Of a stretch of 64,000 nucleotides of DNA, positions 3,481 through 41,850 are shown piece by piece. This DNA comes from a virus. The stretch's first letter is position 1; every line of letters begins with the position of its first letter. The position numbers were made by a program, and so were the translations under genes. The notes under the pieces were generated by a model that worked only from the letters and a program-made list of their open reading frames with translations, ran no database searches and was not told the origin of the DNA. The stretch spans positions 41,748 through 105,747 of IMG/VR virus record IMGVR_UViG_3300022696_000071. One strand, given 5' to 3'.

Positions 3481-6400
3481 GAAGAAGAAAACTAATACAA
3501 ATCCAAAATCGCCTTCAATGAAGCCTTTAAAAGATAAACTTTTAAAGACTAAAAATATAGATAAAATAGATGGAATATTAGATACTATATCAAGCGCTAT
3601 AATTGATAAAGATTCAATGAATTACGCTGAATTAGTAAGACGAACATTCTCATCTGCAATTGATAATGATATGTTTTCTAATACAAGTGCAAATATATTA
3701 TTATCTTCCGATAATGTTGATAGATTTGTACGATATGCAAATTCAGATGAAATATGTGATGCTATACCATATTGTGCAAGAGCATTAAAAGTATTATCTG
3801 ATGAAATTGTATCACCAGACCATATAACAAAAGAAGTAGTTCAATTTTTAGAAGTAGATAAATTAGCAGATGAAGACAAATCTAAAAAAACTAAATTAAG
3901 AGCATTAAATAATATTCTAAGAATAGAAGATAACTTACATGACTTAGTAAATGGTACTTTAAAATATGGCGATCAGATGTTAGAAATATGTGATTATACA
4001 TCTGAAGAAGTACCAATAACACAATCTTTATTGAGCGAACAAAATGGAGGGGAAATACCATACTATGATACATTAAAAGAAGAATATGAAATAAGCGTCA
4101 TAGTAGAAAATGTTAAAGATCCAATCAATATAAAAATAAAACCAATATTGGTTGAAGATAAATCATCTAAACCACCAACATCATCAAAAAATAAAAATGA
4201 TAAATATTTAGATGATGAAAAAATGGAAATAAATAATGTAAGACTCATATTACATGATCCAAGACATGTAATAAAATTACAATCTGAACGATTCAAAATG
4301 AATCTTGGATATTTAATACTTCCAAAAACAACATCAACATCAGCAGAATATGGTGGTCATTCATCAGCCATACGCAAAGCACCAATATCAAGTTCATTAT
4401 TTCAAGGGTATAATGATTACTTGGGAATCGATAAAATATATAAAGATGTAATGAGTACAGTTAAAAGAAGAGTTAACAATGATAAAATATCAGTAGATAA
4501 AAAAGAAGCTCTAAATATGATATCAAGAGCTATAAAAGAATTCGAACAAGATACTGTAAACAATTTTAAAATAAGATTTGTTCCACCTCAAAGAATGCAA
4601 CATTTTACCATAAATGATAAACGATTCTTTCCATATGGTGAAAGTATATTCTTTAAATCAACATTTGCCGGTAAATTATTAGTAGCATTTCAAGTTGCTC
4701 TTGCTATAAAACGTATATCTGATTCATCTGATAAACGAATAATATCAGTTGAGAGTACATTACCAAGAACTGTAAGAAATCTGTTTTCAGATATCAAAAC
4801 TAAGATGAAGAAAAAACAGTTCAGTCTTGACACAATGGGTAATATATCCTCAATTCCATGTTTACATCTTGATACAAAAATACCATTAACAAATGGTTTA
4901 ATATTATCTATATCTGATATAATTGAAAATGTAAAAATGGGCAAAGAAATTGAAGTATTTGCTTATGATCATAAATCTGGACATATTGTTCCAGATAAAA
5001 TTGTTGGTGCTAAAATAACTGGTCGTAATGCAAAAGTTATGAAAATTACTCTTGATAATAACGAATCAATAATTTGTACACCAGAACATTTATGGATGCT
5101 TAGAGATGGATCTTATGTACATGCGAGTGATCTTAAAATTAATGATTCATTAATGCCTCATTATATGAGAAATACAAAATATTGTAATAATAAATGGTTA
5201 ACGTATAAAGAAGTATATCATCCAGGTATAAATAAATGGGAACTTGTACATAGAACATTTGGTAAATATCTTGGATTAGTTAAAGATGGTGATGGCAAAG
5301 TTATACATCATATAAATAAAAATCCTCAAGATAATTCAACAAGTAATTTAGATGGTCTTACTCATTCTGAACATATGTCGATTCATGCAAATGATAAAGA
5401 AAATCCAGCGTTACAATCTAATAAAACTAAAGTTTTAAAGATTGAACGTTGTGAAATGTGTGGAAAGACATATGGTAAAGATCATAGAATTCATTCATTT
5501 TCATGTTCAAAACGATGTTCTTTATTATTAATGTCTGAAAATAATAACGCATGGGAACATAGAAAGAATGAAAATCAATATAAAGAAGTAGATTACTATT
5601 GTGATATATGTGGTAAATTAATAAAAATCACAAAAGCTACATTAAAAAGACAAATTAATAAATTCATAGCATGTGATGATAAAGAATGTAGAAAACATAT
5701 GTCATTTGCTAATAGAGCAATGGGTAGATCTGGAAGATATATAGAAATAGAATTTAATAAATGTCCAATATGTAATAAATTAATAACAAATAGAAAAGAT
5801 GGCGTTAATAAAAAGTTTTACTGTAATATCCAATGTGCAAATACTGCAATGGGAAGACGCAGATGGGCTGGAAAGTCTGAAAAAATAAAAGAAAAATGCT
5901 TTAATTGTGGGGATATTTTTGAAACAACTAAAACAATTAAGAATAGCAGAACATATCAATCATGTAATAAACTTGAATGTATAAGAAATATAAAAAAATA
6001 TAATTCAACTGTAGTATTTAATAATTATCAAGATGTATGCTATATCGAACACGGAAGATGTATTGTATGTAATAAACCAACAGTATTCAATATAAGAAAA
6101 ACTGGTTATACATATTATACATGTGGAAATAAATCATGTAGTCAAGCGGCAATGCAAAATAATATTTCAAGATTTAAAAATGTTATAAATCATAAAATTA
6201 AATCAATTGAATATCTTGATGAAAGAATAACTGTTGGAGATATAGAAACTGAAAAGTTTCATAATTTTGCAACAGATGCTGGTGTAATTATACATAATTC
6301 TATGGTCACATCATTTGAAAATTTTTTTCTCCCTATGAATAAAGGCCAGAAATATATCGAATTTGATAATCTTCCTGCTGCCATTAATCTTCGTGATTTA

Positions 6401-17986: not shown

Positions 17987-19864
17987 ATGTCTGGAGAATG
18001 GAAATGTGAAATGTGTGGCAAGAGTTATAAGAAGTATGGTGGATTATCAAAACATTTAAAATATTGTAAAAGCAATATTGAACATTTATTACATACTGAT
18101 TATTATAAAAAATATATTAATCCAGATGCAAGATCAACTTGTCCAGTTTGTGAAGAAGAAGGAGTAACTACTGAACTTCATTTTAAAAACTTAAAAGATG
18201 GATACACAAATTATTGTAGAAAACATCTTGGACATGATAAAGAAAGAATGAAGAATATTAAGAAAACTTACGAAGAAAGATTTGAAGGTGGTCATCCATC
18301 AAAAGATCCAAACGTAAAAAATTTTAAATTTGGTGGTATTCAGAATCCTGCTAAAAATCCAGAATCAATAAAAAAACGCACTATTACAAGAGCAAAAAAT
18401 ATGGGTAAAATATCAACAAATATTTCAACATCATTAAAAAATAGTGATAAATTAAAAGAAGCACATAAACGAATGAAGAAAATATTATTAGAAAAATATG
18501 GTGTTGAAAATATAGGTCAACTACCACATGTAAAAGAAAAAATAAAAAAGACATTTGAAGAGAAATATGGGTGTCATGCATTTAGTCACTCAGATATAAT
18601 AGAAAAAAGAAAACAAACTAATATAGAACGTTATGGTGTTGAACATCCGATGCAAAATGAGAAAATAAAACAGAAAGTTGAAGATATAAATATAAAACGC
18701 TATGGTGTCAAATCAACATTAATGGTTCCAGAAATTCAAGAAAAATGTAAAGAAACAATGATTGAAAGATATGGAGTAGATCATTATTCAAAAACAGATG
18801 AATTTAAAGATTGGTTTTCACAACATTATATCGATTTATTCAAAGATAAAACAATATCAACATTAGATGAACTTGGATTTGAAGTCGTTGATTATACTAA
18901 GACAACAGGATTATGTAAATTAAAATGCAAAAAGTGTGGAAATGAATTGGAAGAAAAACCAACTGAAATTATATATGGTGGTCGTATACATATATGCAAA
19001 ATTTGTTATCCTAATCGTTTTGGACATATGCAATCAGAATTAACTGATTTTTGTAAAGAATATTTTGATGACGTAATTGAAAATGATAGATCGATACTTC
19101 CTGGTCGATATGAACTCGACATAGTAATTCCATCTATTAAATTAGCAATAGAATTTAATGGTTTATATTGGCATAGTGAATCAATGGGAAAAGATAAGAA
19201 TTATCATGTTAATAAAACAAAAGAAGCAGAAGAAGTTGGATATCAACTGATTCATGTTTTTGAAGATGAGTGGACAAATAATAAAAATATTATTAAATCT
19301 ATATTACTTAATAAGTTTGGTAAAACACCAAATAGATATTTCGCTCGTAAATTAGATATTAAAAATATTGATAAAAATAATGCTAAACGATTTTTGAATG
19401 GAAATCATTTACAACGGTATCATTATGGTGAACATTATGCATTATGTAATGATGATAAAATATTATGCATGTTAACAATGAGTAAACCAAGATTTAATAA
19501 AAAATATGAATGGGAAATTATAAGATTTTGTAATAAAATAAATTGTACTGTTGTCGGTGGTTTATCAAGATTATTAAAACATTTTAGTAAGTTAAATACT
19601 GGTTCTATTATAACATATGTAGATGCTCGATTTGGGAATGGTAGTGGTTACTTGAATGCTGGTTTTAAATTAAAAGGGAAAAGCGATCCAAATTATTTTT
19701 ATATTAATAATTTTCAACGTGAATCAAGAATAAAATATCAAAAACATAAATTAAAAAATAAACTATTATTTTTTGATGAATCATTTACAGAATGGGAAAA
19801 TATGCAGATTAATGGGTTTGATAGAGTATGGGATTGTGGAAACTTTATTTATTCAAGAACTTAA
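17987..19864 (+). CDS. free-standing homing-endonuclease-like protein: N-terminal C2H2/zinc-ribbon module, repeated YGV helical motifs and a C-terminal Vsr/PD-(D/E)xK-like nuclease domain
   Basis: CEMCGKSYKKYGGLSKHLKYC and CPVCEEEG...YCRKHLGHD. Five ERYGV/EKYGV repeats. RYELDIVIPSIKLAIEFNGLYWHS resembles the Vsr-like endonuclease core. Confidence 0.5.
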   Translation: MSGEWKCEMCGKSYKKYGGLSKHLKYCKSNIEHLLHTDYYKKYINPDARSTCPVCEEEGVTTELHFKNLKDGYTNYCRKHLGHDKERMKNIKKTYEERFEGGHPSKDPNVKNFKFGGIQNPAKNPESIKKRTITRAKNMGKISTNISTSLKNSDKLKEAHKRMKKILLEKYGVENIGQLPHVKEKIKKTFEEKYGCHAFSHSDIIEKRKQTNIERYGVEHPMQNEKIKQKVEDINIKRYGVKSTLMVPEIQEKCKETMIERYGVDHYSKTDEFKDWFSQHYIDLFKDKTISTLDELGFEVVDYTKTTGLCKLKCKKCGNELEEKPTEIIYGGRIHICKICYPNRFGHMQSELTDFCKEYFDDVIENDRSILPGRYELDIVIPSIKLAIEFNGLYWHSESMGKDKNYHVNKTKEAEEVGYQLIHVFEDEWTNNKNIIKSILLNKFGKTPNRYFARKLDIKNIDKNNAKRFLNGNHLQRYHYGEHYALCNDDKILCMLTMSKPRFNKKYEWEIIRFCNKINCTVVGGLSRLLKHFSKLNTGSIITYVDARFGNGSGYLNAGFKLKGKSDPNYFYINNFQRESRIKYQKHKLKNKLLFFDESFTEWENMQINGFDRVWDCGNFIYSRT

Positions 19865-26671: not shown

Positions 26672-27574
26672 TTGTGCTTTAAAAGGAGAAACATTATGGT
26701 ACACTCAATTCAATTTGTTGCATCAGTAAAATGTGGTAATCGATTTTTACAAGAAATGAAAAATGAAGATGGTCTTCATAATGTCTTCTTACCATTTGGT
26801 TCAGAATATCAGATATTTCTGAAAAATTTAAATACAAAAAAGGCAAATGTAAGAATTAATATTGATGGAGAAGATGTTCTTGATGGTAACTCTTTATTGG
26901 TTTATCCTAATGATCACTTTATCTTAGATGGATTCTTAAAAAGAAACATTGTAAAGAATAGATTTAAATTTATAGAAAAGACTGAAAAGATAAGTGATTA
27001 TCGTGGAGACAAAATCGATGATGGGATAATTAGAATTGAATTTGCATATGAAGCTGAAGAGAAGAAAGAAATAGTACAAAAAGATCCCAATATTAAGATC
27101 AGTGTAGAACCACAGAAAATTGTAGAAGAGCATCATCATTATCATTATGATAATATACAGTTCTATCATGACCCTATATCATCCACAAATGCATCTGTTG
27201 GATTCGATTCAGTTCAAGCTACATACTCGGCAGATCAAACTAAAAGTGGAACGCTACAAGGAAATATTGTACTTGATTCTCTTCCAGAAAGTACTGTTGT
27301 AGCTGATTCACTTGATCAAAATCAGAATGGTATAACTACATATGGTTCATTGGTGAATAAAGAATTACAATATGGATATATTGGGAAATTAGAAGAACCA
27401 CAAGTTATATTGATTAAATTAAAAGGAGATCTTGGTGTAAATACTGATGATAAAGAAATATTGGTTGAAGAACCAATTACCAAGAAAACAAAACTTAATT
27501 GTAATACTTGTGGTACGATATATAAACTTGGTGCAAAATATTGCTCTGAATGTGGAACTTATTTGCAAACTTGA
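26672..27574 (+). CDS. hypothetical protein with C-terminal zinc ribbon
   Basis: CNTCGTIYKLGAKYCSECGTY at the C-terminus. Confidence 0.3.
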   Translation: MCFKRRNIMVHSIQFVASVKCGNRFLQEMKNEDGLHNVFLPFGSEYQIFLKNLNTKKANVRINIDGEDVLDGNSLLVYPNDHFILDGFLKRNIVKNRFKFIEKTEKISDYRGDKIDDGIIRIEFAYEAEEKKEIVQKDPNIKISVEPQKIVEEHHHYHYDNIQFYHDPISSTNASVGFDSVQATYSADQTKSGTLQGNIVLDSLPESTVVADSLDQNQNGITTYGSLVNKELQYGYIGKLEEPQVILIKLKGDLGVNTDDKEILVEEPITKKTKLNCNTCGTIYKLGAKYCSECGTYLQT

Positions 27575-27741: not shown

Positions 27742-28785
27742 CTATATGGAAAACGATTTGGAAGCATGAAACTTCCCATCTTTCTGCCAATCTTTCGTTG
27801 TGAATATCGAAGTATAGAGAATACGGGATCTGATGAATACTGCTTGACCCCGAAACTGCTTATTTTCGATTGTTCTTACTTCGAATTCTTCTCCATCATG
27901 AGTAACAGAATCATCTTTGCTCATGGTGAAATTGTCTTTGATGAATTCACGAACAACCCCTTTCGTTTGATCATCTTCAAACTTGGATGCAGAAATGTAT
28001 TCTCGTTTTAGATCATTAAGAGAATTGATCTTTCGAATATTCAGAGATTTCCGATTGGCGGGTGCTTTCGGAGTTTCACCAAACTTCTTTCTATACTCCA
28101 ACACCAATGATCCATATGCTTCACGTATCAACGGTTTCCAAATTGCTTTGAAATATGCAAAATTTGGTGAACGCTCTATGCCGACAACTGAACCATCCAC
28201 GAGAATAATAGCACCGATTTGATTGTGAACCAATTCGAACTCTGCAACGAATTTATCCAATTCTTCTTCAAATTGGTCCATGTAATCTTCAAGATGCCCT
28301 CTTGCTCTTAACCCAAGTTTGGAATTGAACTTTTCGATTGGTTCCCATAATCGATTATATCCTCGTATATCACGGGTATTTAATGCTGGTTCAAACAGAG
28401 ATTGTGGGAGTATCGAAAGCTTATGTTGTTCGCTTTTAAGATATCCCCCCGTAGATGACTGAATGCAACAAGCAGTCATAACATCTTTCGTTTCTTTTTT
28501 GTTCACCAAAGTAACGTGGGGAATTGCATGATCTTGACCCTGCCTCTTTTCCATATATGCAGAACCAAACGGGACGATTTGGACTTTATCTGATTTGTTC
28601 GTGAATTGAACAAATCCATAGTCCCTCGTTCCTACATATACATCAGTTGGAATAGCGAGATCTCCAAATTGAAGACTTGGATCATCAAGAATTAATGGGA
28701 TAATTTGCATATATCCTACCGATTGAATGCGTCCAGGTCTTAATCCTTTCAGAATGTCTTTTATATTCACATTAACTGTCGTCAT
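27742..28785 (-). CDS. hypothetical protein, likely co-transcribed downstream of the Ro60-like gene
   Basis: 3-nt gap to the upstream gene on the same strand. No recognisable motif. Confidence 0.3.
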   Translation of the reverse strand: MTTVNVNIKDILKGLRPGRIQSVGYMQIIPLILDDPSLQFGDLAIPTDVYVGTRDYGFVQFTNKSDKVQIVPFGSAYMEKRQGQDHAIPHVTLVNKKETKDVMTACCIQSSTGGYLKSEQHKLSILPQSLFEPALNTRDIRGYNRLWEPIEKFNSKLGLRARGHLEDYMDQFEEELDKFVAEFELVHNQIGAIILVDGSVVGIERSPNFAYFKAIWKPLIREAYGSLVLEYRKKFGETPKAPANRKSLNIRKINSLNDLKREYISASKFEDDQTKGVVREFIKDNFTMSKDDSVTHDGEEFEVRTIENKQFRGQAVFIRSRILYTSIFTTKDWQKDGKFHASKSFSI

Positions 28786-28787
28786 AT

Positions 28788-30413
28788 CTATTCACCTCCT
28801 TCAATCATCCCTGAAATATATTTATCATAGATACCAATCAATCCAGCGCATACATCATGTTTCAAAACATCAATAAGTTGACGTTTCACCACATTGGCTG
28901 GATCAAATACGGGTACAGGTACGAGATCATCCGACATTTGACGTACCGATGTCGAGTCATTTGAAGCAACCGGATTCATATGTGAAATCGGAGTTTTATA
29001 TCCGATCTTCTTCAATGCGCGTATGACTTCATTAACTCTTCCAGCGGGAGCATTTTCATATCCATCAGAAATGATGAATATTCCATCATATTCTTCATCT
29101 GATGTAACAATATTCACCAGTGGAGTTGCTATATCCGTATAACCTGTCGGTTTGTTATCGAATCGATACATGTTTCGACCAGATGTCAGAGCAATTGACT
29201 GCTTATTTGATGCTCTCCGTAATACTTCAATCATCGATTGACCAATACAATATGGTTTGAGTGCATTGGTGTCATCACCATATGATGATCGACTATCATC
29301 GAAAACAATTGCGATATTTTCATATGGAACAGATATAGATTCAGCGATTTTTTTCGCTTTTGTTCCAATCGCATTTTTGAGTTCATGGTCAAATCCCATT
29401 TCATGACCATATATGAATAAATCGACAATACCTTGAGCATATGGGTTGAATGAAACAGTCGTACCTGCTTTTGCAGCCGATTTCTGAGTTAACCGTCTCT
29501 CAGTATTTGTCATTGACCGTTTATCTGACGCAACGAGATTCAAGAAATCTTTTCGATTCACTGATTCATGATGATATGTTGCCCATATACCTTCAAGAGT
29601 GGTTTTAGGTAAACCTTTTCCGGCAGCGATATCGTCTTTCGCATCATGGAATTTTTTATGAATCGGTAACTTTCTCCGATCATTACCCAATGAGAAAGAA
29701 ATCGATTCATATAATTTCGGTCTATCTATACCATTAGCAACATGCCTGCCAATAGCAGATTTCAGAATTTCTTTTTCTTTTTGCTCAAGTGTTCTGAAAT
29801 CATCTTTATTGAGTATACCACGAAGCGCATTTGCCATCGATGATCCAACACCATGAGTTATTACTTCACTCATTTTTTTTCGATATTTCACAGATAGAAA
29901 ATCAATACCTTTTTGATTCAGTAACCATCTCAACATATACGAATGCGTTCTTGCGTTATTGATTCTTCTTCCTTTTAAATCATTGACCATGAATCGAAAA
30001 ATTCTTGCCGTATTCTGAATAGACATGGTTGCACGATCAATAATTTTAGTTTCTGTCTTTTGATCCAGAATTGATTCGGGGAATGCTGTCCAATTATTAG
30101 ACAAACATACAAAGATCATTTTCTGAATTGCAAAATCAGTGCATCCACCCATCAAATGAAGCATAGCATAAACACCTCGATCCATGGCGAATACGTCTTT
30201 ATGCACTCTCATAATTTGAGCTTCCATATCTTCTTTATCAAGATAATGGGTTGCTCTCCCGGTAGACACGGCGATAAGATTCATCAAAGAGTTAACCTTG
30301 ATCTGTAGATCAGCCATATCAGTTCTCTCTTTCAACTGATCAAGTCTGCGTTGGAATGCAATTCGTTGTGGTGTTGCCGGAACTGTTTGTTCACGCAGTA
30401 CAATCTCATTCAT
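28788..30413 (-). CDS. Ro60-like protein: alpha-helical TROVE-like N-terminal module plus C-terminal vWA domain with MIDAS
   Basis: 541 aa, the Ro60 size. C-terminal vWA with DxSxS MIDAS (IAIVFDDSRSSYGDDT) and IFIISDGYEN. A tRNA-like RNA lies immediately upstream, the architecture of bacterial rsr/Y-RNA loci. Confidence 0.4.
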   Translation of the reverse strand: MNEIVLREQTVPATPQRIAFQRRLDQLKERTDMADLQIKVNSLMNLIAVSTGRATHYLDKEDMEAQIMRVHKDVFAMDRGVYAMLHLMGGCTDFAIQKMIFVCLSNNWTAFPESILDQKTETKIIDRATMSIQNTARIFRFMVNDLKGRRINNARTHSYMLRWLLNQKGIDFLSVKYRKKMSEVITHGVGSSMANALRGILNKDDFRTLEQKEKEILKSAIGRHVANGIDRPKLYESISFSLGNDRRKLPIHKKFHDAKDDIAAGKGLPKTTLEGIWATYHHESVNRKDFLNLVASDKRSMTNTERRLTQKSAAKAGTTVSFNPYAQGIVDLFIYGHEMGFDHELKNAIGTKAKKIAESISVPYENIAIVFDDSRSSYGDDTNALKPYCIGQSMIEVLRRASNKQSIALTSGRNMYRFDNKPTGYTDIATPLVNIVTSDEEYDGIFIISDGYENAPAGRVNEVIRALKKIGYKTPISHMNPVASNDSTSVRQMSDDLVPVPVFDPANVVKRQLIDVLKHDVCAGLIGIYDKYISGMIEGGE

Positions 30414-30446
30414 AATAACACTCCTATAAGTATAATGTGGTTAAAT

Positions 30447-30585
30447 TGGTGGCAGGGGAAGGATTTGAACCTTCAATCTCCAGAATATGAATCTGACGAG
30501 TTACCTTTAACTGTAATGATTTAAAAGTCTCAAATTAAATCTGAGTAAATACTAAATCATAGTTGTTATTTTTTTCAACCCTGCC
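30447..30585 (-). ncRNA. tRNA-like/Y-RNA-like RNA: 7-bp terminal stem GGCAGGG/CCCUGCC-A-CCA, T-arm GAAGG-UUCAAAU-CCUUC, anticodon-like loop UUCAUAU (CAU), and a ~66-nt internal insertion ending in the conserved element
   Basis: Read directly on the minus strand. The 5' strand GGCAGGG lies ~130 nt upstream of the perfectly complementary 3' strand, which is followed by ACCA. Confidence 0.45.
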
Positions 30586-30605
30586 ACAAAATATGTAAAA
30601 TAAAT

Positions 30606-39330: not shown

Positions 39331-40713
39331 ATGATAATTTGTCAAATCTGCAACAAAAAATTTGAACGTTTAATTTCTTTAAGTTATCACCTAATTACCC
39401 ATAAAGATATATCTGTAAAAGAGTATTATGATAAATATCTAAAAGAAGATGGTGGTGATTTATGTAAATATTGTAAAAAAGAAAAAACACGATTTAAAAG
39501 TATTATTGTAGGTTATACACCATATTGTAGTAGTGAATGTTGGAGTATGGATAATCATGGTGTGGAATATTATGGATTAACAAAATCTAAAAAGATGTTT
39601 GCAGAAGCATATAAAGGTAAAATTGAATTAAGAGTATTTACTAAAGATGAAAAAACTTGTCAATTATGTGGTAAGCACTTCAATAAAATAATTGGTATAT
39701 CCAAACATTTAAGGGCGTGTGTAAAAAATATTGATCATATAAATACACAACAATATTATGATAAATATTTAAGAAAATCTAAAGATGAAGGTATATGTTT
39801 AAATTGTAAAATAAATAAGACTAAGTTTAGAGGATTACAAATAGGATATGCATCTTTTTGTGGGAAAAAATGTGGAACTGAAGGGAGATTAAAAGGATTT
39901 AAATCAAAAAACACACAACATTGTACAACAAAGATTGATCCAATTAATTGTAAACTATGCGAAAAAGAACTTAGAAATTTAAAATCAATAATAGCACACT
40001 TACGATTCTGCAAACAAAATAATGAAAATTTAAATGCAATAAAATATTATGAAAGATATTTAAGAAAACAAGATGAAGGATATTGTATTATTTGTAATAG
40101 ACCAACAAAACTTAAAAGTATAACAGATGGATACAATAGATACTGTTCACCAAGATGTGGTAATGTAAAAACAGTTGATTATTATAAAGAAAAATATCCA
40201 TTATTTTGTAAAGTAGAAAAAATAAGAAATAATAATAAATATAAAGGACATTGTGGAATACAAGTAAGATGTAAACAATGTAAAAAATGGTTTGTTCCAA
40301 ATAAACACGCTTTAAGTGAACGAATTGGAACCATAGAAGGGTTATCAGAAAAAACTGGATTAATGTCAGAAAATAATTTTTATTGTTCAGATGAATGTAA
40401 ACAATCTTGCTCAGTATTTGGATTAAGATCAGATTCAATGATTTTATCTGATATTCCATATACAGATAACGAACTTTATATATGGCGAAAAGAAGTATTT
40501 AAAAGACAAATAGAAGAAGATAGATATAATAGTTGTGAAATATGTGGAGAAACAACTGATCTACATTGTCATCACGAAAAACCAATTAAAACACACCCCC
40601 ATCTATCATTAGATCCAGATAATGGAATTATTTTATGTAAAGATTGTCATTATAAAAATGGTCATACTGGAAAATGTTCTACTAAACATATAGCACATAA
40701 AATATGCTATTAA
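39331..40713 (+). CDS. free-standing HNH homing endonuclease with N-terminal array of C2H2-like fingers and Cys4 zinc ribbons
   Basis: C-terminal HNH CEICGETTDLHCHHEKPIKTHPHLSLDPDNGIILCKDCH. Four repeats of C2H2-like finger + YYDKYL + CxxCxK...YCSxxC, the same ribbon type as in the portal inteins. Confidence 0.55.
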   Translation: MIICQICNKKFERLISLSYHLITHKDISVKEYYDKYLKEDGGDLCKYCKKEKTRFKSIIVGYTPYCSSECWSMDNHGVEYYGLTKSKKMFAEAYKGKIELRVFTKDEKTCQLCGKHFNKIIGISKHLRACVKNIDHINTQQYYDKYLRKSKDEGICLNCKINKTKFRGLQIGYASFCGKKCGTEGRLKGFKSKNTQHCTTKIDPINCKLCEKELRNLKSIIAHLRFCKQNNENLNAIKYYERYLRKQDEGYCIICNRPTKLKSITDGYNRYCSPRCGNVKTVDYYKEKYPLFCKVEKIRNNNKYKGHCGIQVRCKQCKKWFVPNKHALSERIGTIEGLSEKTGLMSENNFYCSDECKQSCSVFGLRSDSMILSDIPYTDNELYIWRKEVFKRQIEEDRYNSCEICGETTDLHCHHEKPIKTHPHLSLDPDNGIILCKDCHYKNGHTGKCSTKHIAHKICY

Positions 40714-41439: not shown

Positions 41440-41850
41440 ATGAAAAGAGTATTATTATTTTCAACATTAGCATTAATTTTATTATTAACATACAACGTTT
41501 GTATAGCATTAACGGGCGGTGAATATATCAGAATTGAAAAAGGTTTCTTCTTTGAAATGGATGGTAGATATTACTATTTTCCACAAGAAATAGAAATTGA
41601 TCAAACTGCATTTTGGGAAACTGGTGGGTATGAAGGCGAAGATCCTAATGGAGATGATACAGATCCACCCCCTCCGCCACCTCCGCCTCCACAACCAACA
41701 CCATCTAAAGATAATGCATTTAATTCATGTATGACGTGTCATAGCGATAAAGACGAAGCTAAATTCAAATTCGAAAATTGGAAAACTACACTTCATACAA
41801 AACATCGTGAGAAAAAAATAGAATGCATTAAATGTCATAAGCTTGATTAA
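41440..41850 (+). CDS. small secreted Pro-rich protein with two CxxCH haem-c-type motifs (dihaem cytochrome c-like)
   Basis: Signal peptide MKRVLLFSTLALILLLTYNVCIA. PPPPPPPPPQP linker. CMTCH and CIKCH 33 residues apart. Confidence 0.35.
   Translation: MKRVLLFSTLALILLLTYNVCIALTGGEYIRIEKGFFFEMDGRYYYFPQEIEIDQTAFWETGGYEGEDPNGDDTDPPPPPPPPPQPTPSKDNAFNSCMTCHSDKDEAKFKFENWKTTLHTKHREKKIECIKCHKLD

Follow-up and report, generated by a model that had tools for sequence, protein, structure and literature searches.

A candidate Ro60/Y-RNA-type module of a divergent clade, with an ARPP-family gene and six small RNAs on a common stem, in a viral genome

The locus

The DNA considered here (hereafter the window) is a stretch of 64,000 nucleotides, positions 41,748 to 105,747 of the virus record IMGVR_UViG_3300022696_000071, whose source contig has a reported length of 201 kb, and it contains on its minus strand a gene for a Ro60-like protein, a gene of the ARPP family that follows it almost without interruption, and six small RNAs (U1 to U6), all of them on the strand of the Ro60-like gene and within 2 kb upstream of it (32407..31734 and 30585..30447). 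A previous reading of this stretch, made without database searches (the sequence-only reading), had pointed to the protein and to the RNA nearest to it, U6, as a candidate phage Ro/Y-RNA module. The elements discussed are the following:

28788..30413, minus strand: Ro60-like protein gene, 541 aa, ATG start, with GGAG 8 nt before the ATG
27742..28785, minus strand: ARPP-family gene, 347 aa, its start 2 nt past the Ro60-like stop codon
32284..32407, minus strand: U1, class A, tRNA-Lys(UUU)-like cloverleaf in the conserved stem, 4-bp acceptor stem
32170..32272, minus strand: U2, class D, conserved stem around a short non-tRNA body with two hairpins
32040..32159, minus strand: U3, class A, tRNA-Phe(GAA)-like cloverleaf in the conserved stem, 5-bp acceptor stem
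31890..32028, minus strand: U4, class C, permuted tRNA-like and YrlA-like RNA flanked by the conserved stem
31734..31879, minus strand: U5, class B, GGGGGAG...CUCCCCC-GCCA, with the same stem inserted
30447..30585, minus strand: U6, class B, 139 nt, open 7-bp acceptor stem plus ACCA, T arm

A protein with a predicted Ro60 fold

The 541-aa protein is predicted to consist of a helical, TROVE-like ring (residues ~1-358) and, C-terminal to it, a vWA domain whose MIDAS site is complete. The DxSxS motif of this site, already read from the sequence, holds up well in the open reading frame 28788..30413 (-), since D372-x-S374-x-S376 and the more distal D450 are invariant in 56/56 aligned homologues, and T426 is either T or S. 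The string D450-G-Y-E-N is invariant across the same 56-sequence alignment of Ro60-like homologues, and in the N-terminal part of the family conservation reaches 85% or more at many Arg, Lys, Tyr and His positions. The relatives form 93 homologue clusters, with identities of ~30-37% and none carrying a name, and searches of NCBIfam, PHROGs and PADLOC with the 541-aa protein gave no match. Likewise, no Ro60 was found among the PDB sequences either by phmmer or by a profile of the 56 sequences, and in the GenBank phage collection the sole match is one unannotated, uncultured 462-kb phage, with no annotated relative there.

The AlphaFold2 model obtained from the homologue alignment (predicted local distance difference test score, pLDDT, 91.1; predicted template modelling score, pTM, 0.88) is all-helical up to about residue 358 and has an alpha/beta domain after it, that is, the architecture of Ro60, a ring of HEAT-like helical repeats closed by a C-terminal vWA domain. 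When this model was compared with the PDB by Foldseek, the ten best matches were Ro60/TROVE entries, aligned over the full length, with a best E-value of 1.6e-7. Judged by the model, the protein has the Ro60 architecture while lying, by sequence, outside TROVE as this family is now modelled, and the clade to which it belongs goes unseen by the TROVE, NCBIfam and PHROG models.

The ARPP gene and its coupling to the Ro60-like gene

The gene directly downstream, which had gone unmentioned in the sequence-only reading and is the most constant partner of the Ro60-like gene, matches the Pfam families ARPP-1 and ARPP-2 (PF20208 / PF22549) with 77.2 and 52.5 bits, respectively (curated cut-off, 27 bits), and its product retains the conserved ARPP residues C107 and Q112. 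For the comparison across loci, viral contigs were searched with the protein alignment, giving 116 relatives from which 80 loci were kept, and 4 loci were added from exact look-ups; 62 cellular loci came from a scan of one genome per species, mainly of Pirellulaceae, Myxococcota and Bacteroidota. These counts include near-duplicate contigs, and some of the "cellular" loci are metagenome bins that may be viral contigs. Counted in this way, an ARPP gene lies directly downstream of the Ro60-like gene in 82/84 viral or metagenomic loci and in 56/62 cellular loci. Most of the loci without it are contigs that end there, although two of them (L168 and L173) have downstream DNA and yet no ARPP match. 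More than 140 further loci, viral and bacterial, contain the module as a whole. Cultured strains whose genomes are complete are among its cellular carriers, and the cultured bacteria that have it include Novipirellula sp. SH528, Stieleria magnilauensis TBK1r, Rhodopirellula sp. SWK7, Thalassoglobus neptunius and Minicystis rosea DSM 24000.

Six RNAs built on one stem

At no more than one mismatch, AATCATTACAG occurs in six minus-strand copies between 30511 and 32394 and hardly elsewhere in the window. Each copy belongs to a stem in which two helices, the outer one of 4-7 bp and the inner one of ~10 bp, are separated by an asymmetric internal loop whose 5' side is AC or AAC and whose 3' side has 4-7 nt with UUA at its end; UACAG follows the inner helix, and the 5' strand reads AGACU or GAACU. 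Both helices vary in sequence among the six copies with their pairing retained. The bodies carried by this stem are of three tRNA-like topologies or consist of a short hairpin body; the strands of the stem flank the body in U1-U4, and in U5 and U6 the stem is capped as a hairpin inside the RNA. U1-U5 are arranged head to tail, with spacers of 10-12 U-rich nucleotides.

U1 and U3 are called as tRNA genes by ARAGORN, and their tRNA-like bodies are the only elements that Rfam finds over the window at the gathering threshold. Their matches to the Rfam tRNA model are only partial (56.4 bits over model positions 4-67 for U1, 53.6 bits over positions 3-68 for U3), because the acceptor stems, of 4 and 5 bp, run into the conserved stem. 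The neighbouring "tRNA array" of the sequence-only reading thus dissolves into two ARAGORN calls with short acceptor stems inside that stem, which are not ordinary tRNAs. None of U1, U3 and U6 matches the tRNA model in full, i.e., with at least 29 bits and a 7-bp acceptor stem joined directly to nucleotide U8.

U6, the RNA flagged at the outset, had been described as a ~139-nt RNA directly 5' of the protein gene, on its strand, with a perfect 7-bp stem, ACCA and a T arm, and it is indeed read in this way at 30585..30447: GGCAGGG, 104 nt, the T arm GAAGG-UUCAAAU-CCUUC and CCCUGCC-ACCA. The loop of its anticodon-like arm is UUCAUAU, an insertion of ~75 nt with the conserved-stem hairpin occupies the D-loop region, and its fold, at -34.2 kcal/mol, is more stable than those of shuffled sequences (z = -3.7). 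With the acceptor 5' strand ~75 nt away from the rest, the body scores 28.4 bits with the Rfam tRNA model (RF00005; gathering score 29). The possibility that the hairpin inserted in U5 and U6 is an intron or a mobile insertion was ruled out, given that it is conserved and covarying in ~50 distinct RNAs.

The permuted order of YrlA inside the stem is found not in U6, whose acceptor end is open, but 1.5 kb further upstream, in U4, which runs through T arm, acceptor 3' strand, CCCA plus a short linker, acceptor 5' strand, D arm and anticodon-like arm. U4 is also the sole element of the window that touches the Rfam YrlA model (RF02553), with 26.6 bits and E 0.007 against a gathering score of 69.

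Two further structured segments were observed around the RNAs. Just 5' of U1, a 107-nt element (32477..32583, minus strand) has an 18-bp closing stem and three internal hairpins (minimum free energy -50.7 kcal/mol, z = -7.2 against shuffles; no Rfam match at E <= 10), and could represent either a leader structure or one more non-coding RNA of the array. Between U5 and the GSU2086-family gene described below, the segment 31599..31733 (minus strand) contains two hairpins, one of them with a degenerate copy of the motif (GATTCATTAAAG), and folds weakly better than shuffles (z = -2.1).

The RNA classes in other loci

Class A was examined on a MAFFT alignment of 35 units, from which RNAalifold recovers the outer and inner helices as well as the D, anticodon and T arms. 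Standard pairs are formed in 92.6% of the cells, compared with 70% in column shuffles, and pairing falls to 41-48% when the 3' partners are slid by 1-3 columns; compensatory changes affect 4/4 pairs of the outer helix and 7/7 pairs of the inner one. In most of the loci, viral as well as cellular, the covariance model built on this class (R1) gives full-length, same-strand matches beside the gene pair, whereas the ordinary tRNAs of module loci match it only at the body (positions 36-110); within the window it finds only U1 (103.6 bits), U3 (94.7 bits) and, weakly, U6. The 35 units have acceptor stems of 4-5 bp and more than 20 different anticodons, UUA and UCA included, and some have 6-nt loops. 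Due to these short acceptor stems and to anticodons that vary at equivalent positions and are in some cases stop-reading, the bodies of class A are unlikely to be decoding tRNAs and are better described as mimics.

Class B units were collected by a scan in which a T arm had to precede a 7-nt strand and the perfect complement of this strand had to lie over 60 nt upstream; since the acceptor and T helices thus served as selection criteria, they are excluded as evidence. Their layout comprises GGGGAGA (acceptor 5' strand), UAGCAAA plus a linker, the conserved stem as a capped hairpin, UUNCAGUAAAGGUAAAGC, the anticodon-like arm, the T arm, UCUCCCC (acceptor 3' strand) and a terminal ACAA, ACCA or GCAA. 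The helices that had not been selected for are paired in 86% (inner stem), 94.5% (outer stem) and 93% (anticodon-like arm) across 50 units, with compensatory changes. A second covariance model (R2) was built from 48 class B RNAs of other loci and no window sequence, and it matches U6 along its whole length (139/139 model positions, 96.3 bits, E ~6e-20), so that this RNA is confirmed as something beyond a chance structure; the sole other strong match in the 64 kb is U5 (67.6 bits, E 2e-13). The E-values of these custom models are rough, as their calibration was shortened, and the MAFFT alignments misplace a few rows (e.g., the inner-helix strand of U6 is off by 3 columns in the alignment A5).

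The layout of U4, with NCCA in the acceptor loop, recurs in many loci (class C), and the units of this class in locus L022 score 27-37 bits with the Rfam YrlA model, again below its gathering score of 69. Class D units, of ~100 nt, recur in other loci too, their short body often containing GGUAAA. A YrlA match in locus L001 was discarded since it spans two adjacent ordinary tRNAs, a known type of false positive. Flank duplex energies, calculated around all ARAGORN tRNAs, proved too noisy in G+C-rich arrays such as that of locus L007, and the covariance models were used instead.

The association of RNAs and protein is seen from both sides. Starting from the protein, same-strand tRNA-like genes are called by ARAGORN beside nearly every locus, many of them with odd anticodons (ACA, AUC, UUA, UCA) or 6-nt loops, and in the loci inspected they sit in the same two-helix stem, whose 5' strand reads GAGAACUG or GGAAACUG and in which (U/A)CAG precedes the body. 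Starting from the RNA, a search of 2.9 million viral contigs for exact copies of the 5' stem motif AAGGAAACTGNNNGTTRTTWCAGTA gave 33 matches, and a Ro60-like gene lies downstream on the same strand in 22/22 of the contigs with roughly 2 kb or more of downstream DNA, the remaining 11 of the 33 ending within 1.6 kb.

Some individual loci deserve mention. Locus L007 (IMGVR_UViG_3300002052_000001, 191 kb) has the Ro60-like/ARPP pair amid an array of 34 tRNA genes that covers most amino acids, and a tRNA-Val just upstream of its Ro60-like gene has a very strong flanking duplex. Distant viral loci contain, inside the RNA array, an ordinary-looking tRNA(CAU) without the conserved stem (L037, 1806-1891; L045, 3152-3226; L064, 2897-2971; and many others), with 5' UGCGGG and 3' CCCGCUAC, resulting in a U1-U72 mismatch, and with some copies of 83-89 nt. 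In the bacterial locus L003, the region upstream of the Ro60-like gene contains, at 5528-5541 and 5962-5975, two copies of GTCATCCTCACCGG, the string that corresponds to the 3' loop plus helix of the conserved stem, which suggests a second unit that neither ARAGORN nor R1 calls.

Other genes of the window

Further genes recognised in the window are the following:

30606..31598, minus strand: GSU2086-family gene, 330 aa, between U5 and U6 (NCBIfam E 1.7e-104)
17987..19864, plus strand: large homing / HNH endonuclease gene (PHROG E 3e-114)
39331..40713, plus strand: open reading frame with a C-terminal HNH domain
38494..39234: virion protein gene

The product of the GSU2086-family gene has a Rossmann fold like that of deoxyhypusine synthase or ArgZ-C. 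This gene was ruled out as a part of the module, given that it is missing from all 146 other loci, and it therefore looks like a lineage-specific insertion within the RNA array. The homing/HNH endonucleases and the virion protein are the only phage functions recognised near the module, and they indicate a phage in general, not specifically the T4-like one of the sequence-only reading. Convergent with the ARPP gene, an open reading frame of 300 aa (26672..27574, plus strand) has a C-terminal zinc ribbon (weak Pfam matches) and a His-rich EEHHHYHYD.

Interpretation and alternatives

Considering the predicted fold, the gene order, the covariation of the RNAs and their reciprocal co-occurrence with the protein, we read the locus, with moderate confidence, as a ribonucleoprotein module of the Ro60/Y-RNA type that belongs to a divergent clade and is formed by the Ro60-like ring, ARPP and the six small RNAs. 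If the stem-bulge-stem to which Ro60 binds in Y RNAs is taken as a guide, the conserved stem (outer helix, asymmetric loop with 5' (A)ACU, inner helix of ~10 bp and UACAG) would be the binding site of the Ro60-like protein, and the variable tRNA-shaped body (in U2, a small hairpin body) would be the effector, either mimicking a tRNA or recruiting a tRNA-recognising factor. ARPP is predicted to be an enzyme, has a conserved Cys and Gln, and is encoded by a gene that appears to be translationally coupled; it is suggested as the protein partner by the tight coupling of the two genes together with the invariant MIDAS site, and the vWA MIDAS site would be its likely docking point. The resulting complex may serve in the surveillance, repair or protection of tRNA-like RNAs during infection.

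Several observations weigh against this proposal. The protein of the window matches no Pfam family at E <= 1, TROVE (PF05731) included, and TROVE is matched at E <= 0.1 by 0/56 of the aligned homologues, which show a few weak vWA matches; as no sequence profile ties the protein to TROVE, the homology rests on the predicted structure. Thus, of the "TROVE plus vWA" protein of the sequence-only reading, the Ro60 likeness survives at the level of structure, where the best PDB matches of the model are Ro60, and the sequence match to TROVE, in the window protein as in the 56 family members, does not. Neither does the assignment of the flagged RNA to the YrlA or Y RNA type, since the Rfam Y_RNA and YrlA models miss U6, whose acceptor end is open with ACCA, and no unit reaches their threshold. 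What stands of the Ro/Y-RNA module then envisaged in a phage is a Ro60-type protein beside a tRNA-like RNA of a conserved and co-occurring family that is not YrlA-type. In addition, the published Ro60-binding stem motif is GNCGAAN0-1G or CGAA (PMC4201824, PMC12135203), and GNCGAAN0-1G is not found on the 5' strand of these stems, which read AGACU/GAACU in the window and GAGAACUG/GGAAACUG in the relatives. Class B is limited to a subset of loci, mostly viral, and most planctomycete loci lack it, so the module does not depend on all of its RNA classes. Finally, no structural relative of ARPP was found, and it has no known activity.

Could the RNAs be substrates instead? They would then be precursors of phage tRNAs or tRNA-like RNAs, with the stem as a processing signal (for RNase III, E or P) and the Ro60-like protein plus ARPP as a maturation or quality-control factor. 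Stems with asymmetric internal loops may resemble phage RNase III sites, the packing of U1-U5 with their short U-rich spacers is like that of a polycistronic precursor, NCCA is encoded in the class C loops, immediately past the acceptor 3' strand, and NCCA or NCAA forms the end of class B. Furthermore, the YrlA of Mycobacterium smegmatis is cleaved by RNase P and has CCA added (PMC4201824). Nonetheless, mature decoding tRNAs are not expected from class A, with its truncated acceptor stems, 6-nt loops and variable, partly stop-reading anticodons; the ordinary tRNAs of the same loci lack the stem, as seen in their matches to R1; and the stem motifs (A)ACU and CAG are kept all the way from phages to Planctomycetes, a pattern more in keeping with a site for a dedicated protein than with one for a generic RNase. 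We consider this explanation unlikely. A cis-acting role for U6, as the 5' leader of the Ro60-like mRNA (an autoregulatory site to which the protein binds or a tRNA-sensing leader) and not a free small RNA, appears less likely still: 33 nt separate its 3' end from the start codon of the gene, which is on the same strand, no terminator-like site was found between U6 and the gene, and close relatives have a stem-flanked unit 130-450 nt upstream of the gene, but other loci have units of the same classes as far as 3.5 kb upstream, or on the downstream side of ARPP, the window has five further copies beyond an intervening gene, and rsr-yrlBA is, as a rule, also co-transcribed and then processed (PMC7790460). 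The most sceptical explanation, a generic protein with helical repeats and a vWA domain, unrelated to RNA, whose neighbours are decayed tRNA genes or repeats sharing a phage promoter or processing motif, would draw on the absent TROVE sequence signal, on the wide distribution of vWA domains and on scans of the window for promoters and terminators, which gave nothing informative. It would reduce to coincidence the association between protein and RNAs, including the 22/22 of the reciprocal test; it was already disfavoured, and we give it very little credit.

Within the preferred reading, i.e., a Ro60/Y-RNA-type module, a more specific and rather doubtful suggestion is that of a widespread and hitherto overlooked system in which the Ro60-fold ring and the ARPP enzyme use the tRNA-shaped RNAs, with their three topologies and rapidly varying anticodon loops, as decoys, sensors or adaptors against factors that attack or repair tRNAs. 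The anticodon-loop variability of class A would fit decoys or sensors for factors that target the anticodon loop, and one topology, having a free NCCA end, might even be charged. If this were true, huge phages would protect translation in this way against host anticodon nucleases or RNA-modifying toxins, and bacteria with very large genomes would employ the same system in the surveillance of their own RNA.

Beyond that suggestion, the clade bears on questions still raised by Ro60 systems: what is the role of the tRNA-like part of Y RNAs? What is the ligand of the Ro60 MIDAS site (PMC12135203; bioRxiv 10.1101/312249)? It offers a fixed partner, ARPP, as a candidate MIDAS ligand and, with the same predicted protein handle on three different tRNA faces, a ready-made natural structure-function series, which the presence of the module in cultured bacteria makes directly testable. 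For annotation, it means that "tRNA genes" called beside such phage loci may not be tRNAs and that a whole Ro60 clade escapes the current Pfam, NCBIfam and Rfam models.

Comparison with known systems

A Ro60 protein with several adjacent Y RNAs, some of them mimicking tRNAs, is known in bacteria and phages (PMC4201824, PMC12135203), and the known Ro60 RNAs combine a stem-bulge-stem module for protein binding with a variable effector that is often a tRNA mimic (PMC4201824; bioRxiv 10.1101/312249; PMC12135203). Since such modules have been described in phages, namely mycobacteriophages, CcrColossus, Bacillus phage G and Thermus phage phiLo (PMC4201824, PMC12135203, PMC7824862), a module of this kind is not new in itself. 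With the Rsr and YrlA/YrlB systems of Salmonella, Mycobacterium smegmatis and mycobacteriophages (PMC4201824, bioRxiv 10.1101/312249), the locus shares the ring of helical repeats closed by a vWA/MIDAS domain (here predicted) and several adjacent small RNAs on the same strand that join a stem-bulge-stem to a tRNA-like module. U4 even has the YrlA order of T arm, closed acceptor hairpin and D arm; unlike YrlA, however, it retains an anticodon-like arm of its own and encodes CCA in the acceptor loop. The TROVE signal of the Rsr systems is lacking here, the YrlA scores are far below threshold, and the stem is of the type (A)ACU...UACAG and not GNCGAAN0-1G. Moreover, classes A and B have no YrlA counterpart, YrlA being defined as lacking the free CCA end, whereas the acceptor end of class B, U6 included, is a free NCCA, and ARPP takes the place of RtcB/RtcA as the constant neighbour.

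Other systems resemble single aspects of the module. The RNAs Yrl1 and Yrl2 of the phiLo Ro60 (PMC12135203; PDB 9KOP, 9L5Y) were identified by way of the CGAA motif; neither tRNA cloverleaves nor a partnership with ARPP have been described for this system, and the sequence identity of its Ro60 to the model of the window protein is ~8-11%. The Yrn1 of Deinococcus radiodurans, which acts with Rsr and PNPase in the RYPER complex, has its Ro60-binding stem in the place of the tRNA acceptor stem, as in class A (PMC4201824), although its tRNA features are only partial, whereas class A units are full cloverleaves that score 50-60 bits with the tRNA model. Class B (U5 and U6) shares with the tRNA-like domain of tmRNA and with the tRNA-like structure of turnip yellow mosaic virus (TYMV) a 7-bp acceptor stem, a free NCCA, a T arm and a reduced D region, which is the set of features that allows charging in both of them; unlike these, it has no mRNA-like part, pseudoknots or SmpB, and it has instead a predicted protein-handle hairpin in the D-loop region. 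Although no formal search for the motif was made, the flanking stem does not look like the bulge-helix-bulge of permuted tRNA genes of algae and archaea, in that an asymmetric loop of 2-3 x 5-10 nt lies between helices of 4-8 and ~10 bp, in place of the 3-4-3 geometry. As regards ARPP, the same family, with the conserved Cys and Gln, occurs in the ARG-centred systems of Iyer et al. 2022, beside vWA "chaperone" genes in predicted conflict systems (PMC9503650); in contrast to these, no ADP-ribosylglycohydrolase or rhodanese-phosphatase is present here, and the combination of ARPP, a Ro60-fold protein and tRNA-like RNAs is a context unlisted in that work. Our literature searches found no paper that links Ro60/TROVE with ARPP or that describes the module as such.

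What is new with respect to these systems is therefore a clade invisible to TROVE, an obligatory ARPP partner, another stem motif and RNA architectures without a described counterpart: in class A, a whole cloverleaf stacked on the stem, and in class B, a free NCCA end combined with a predicted protein handle in the D-loop region.

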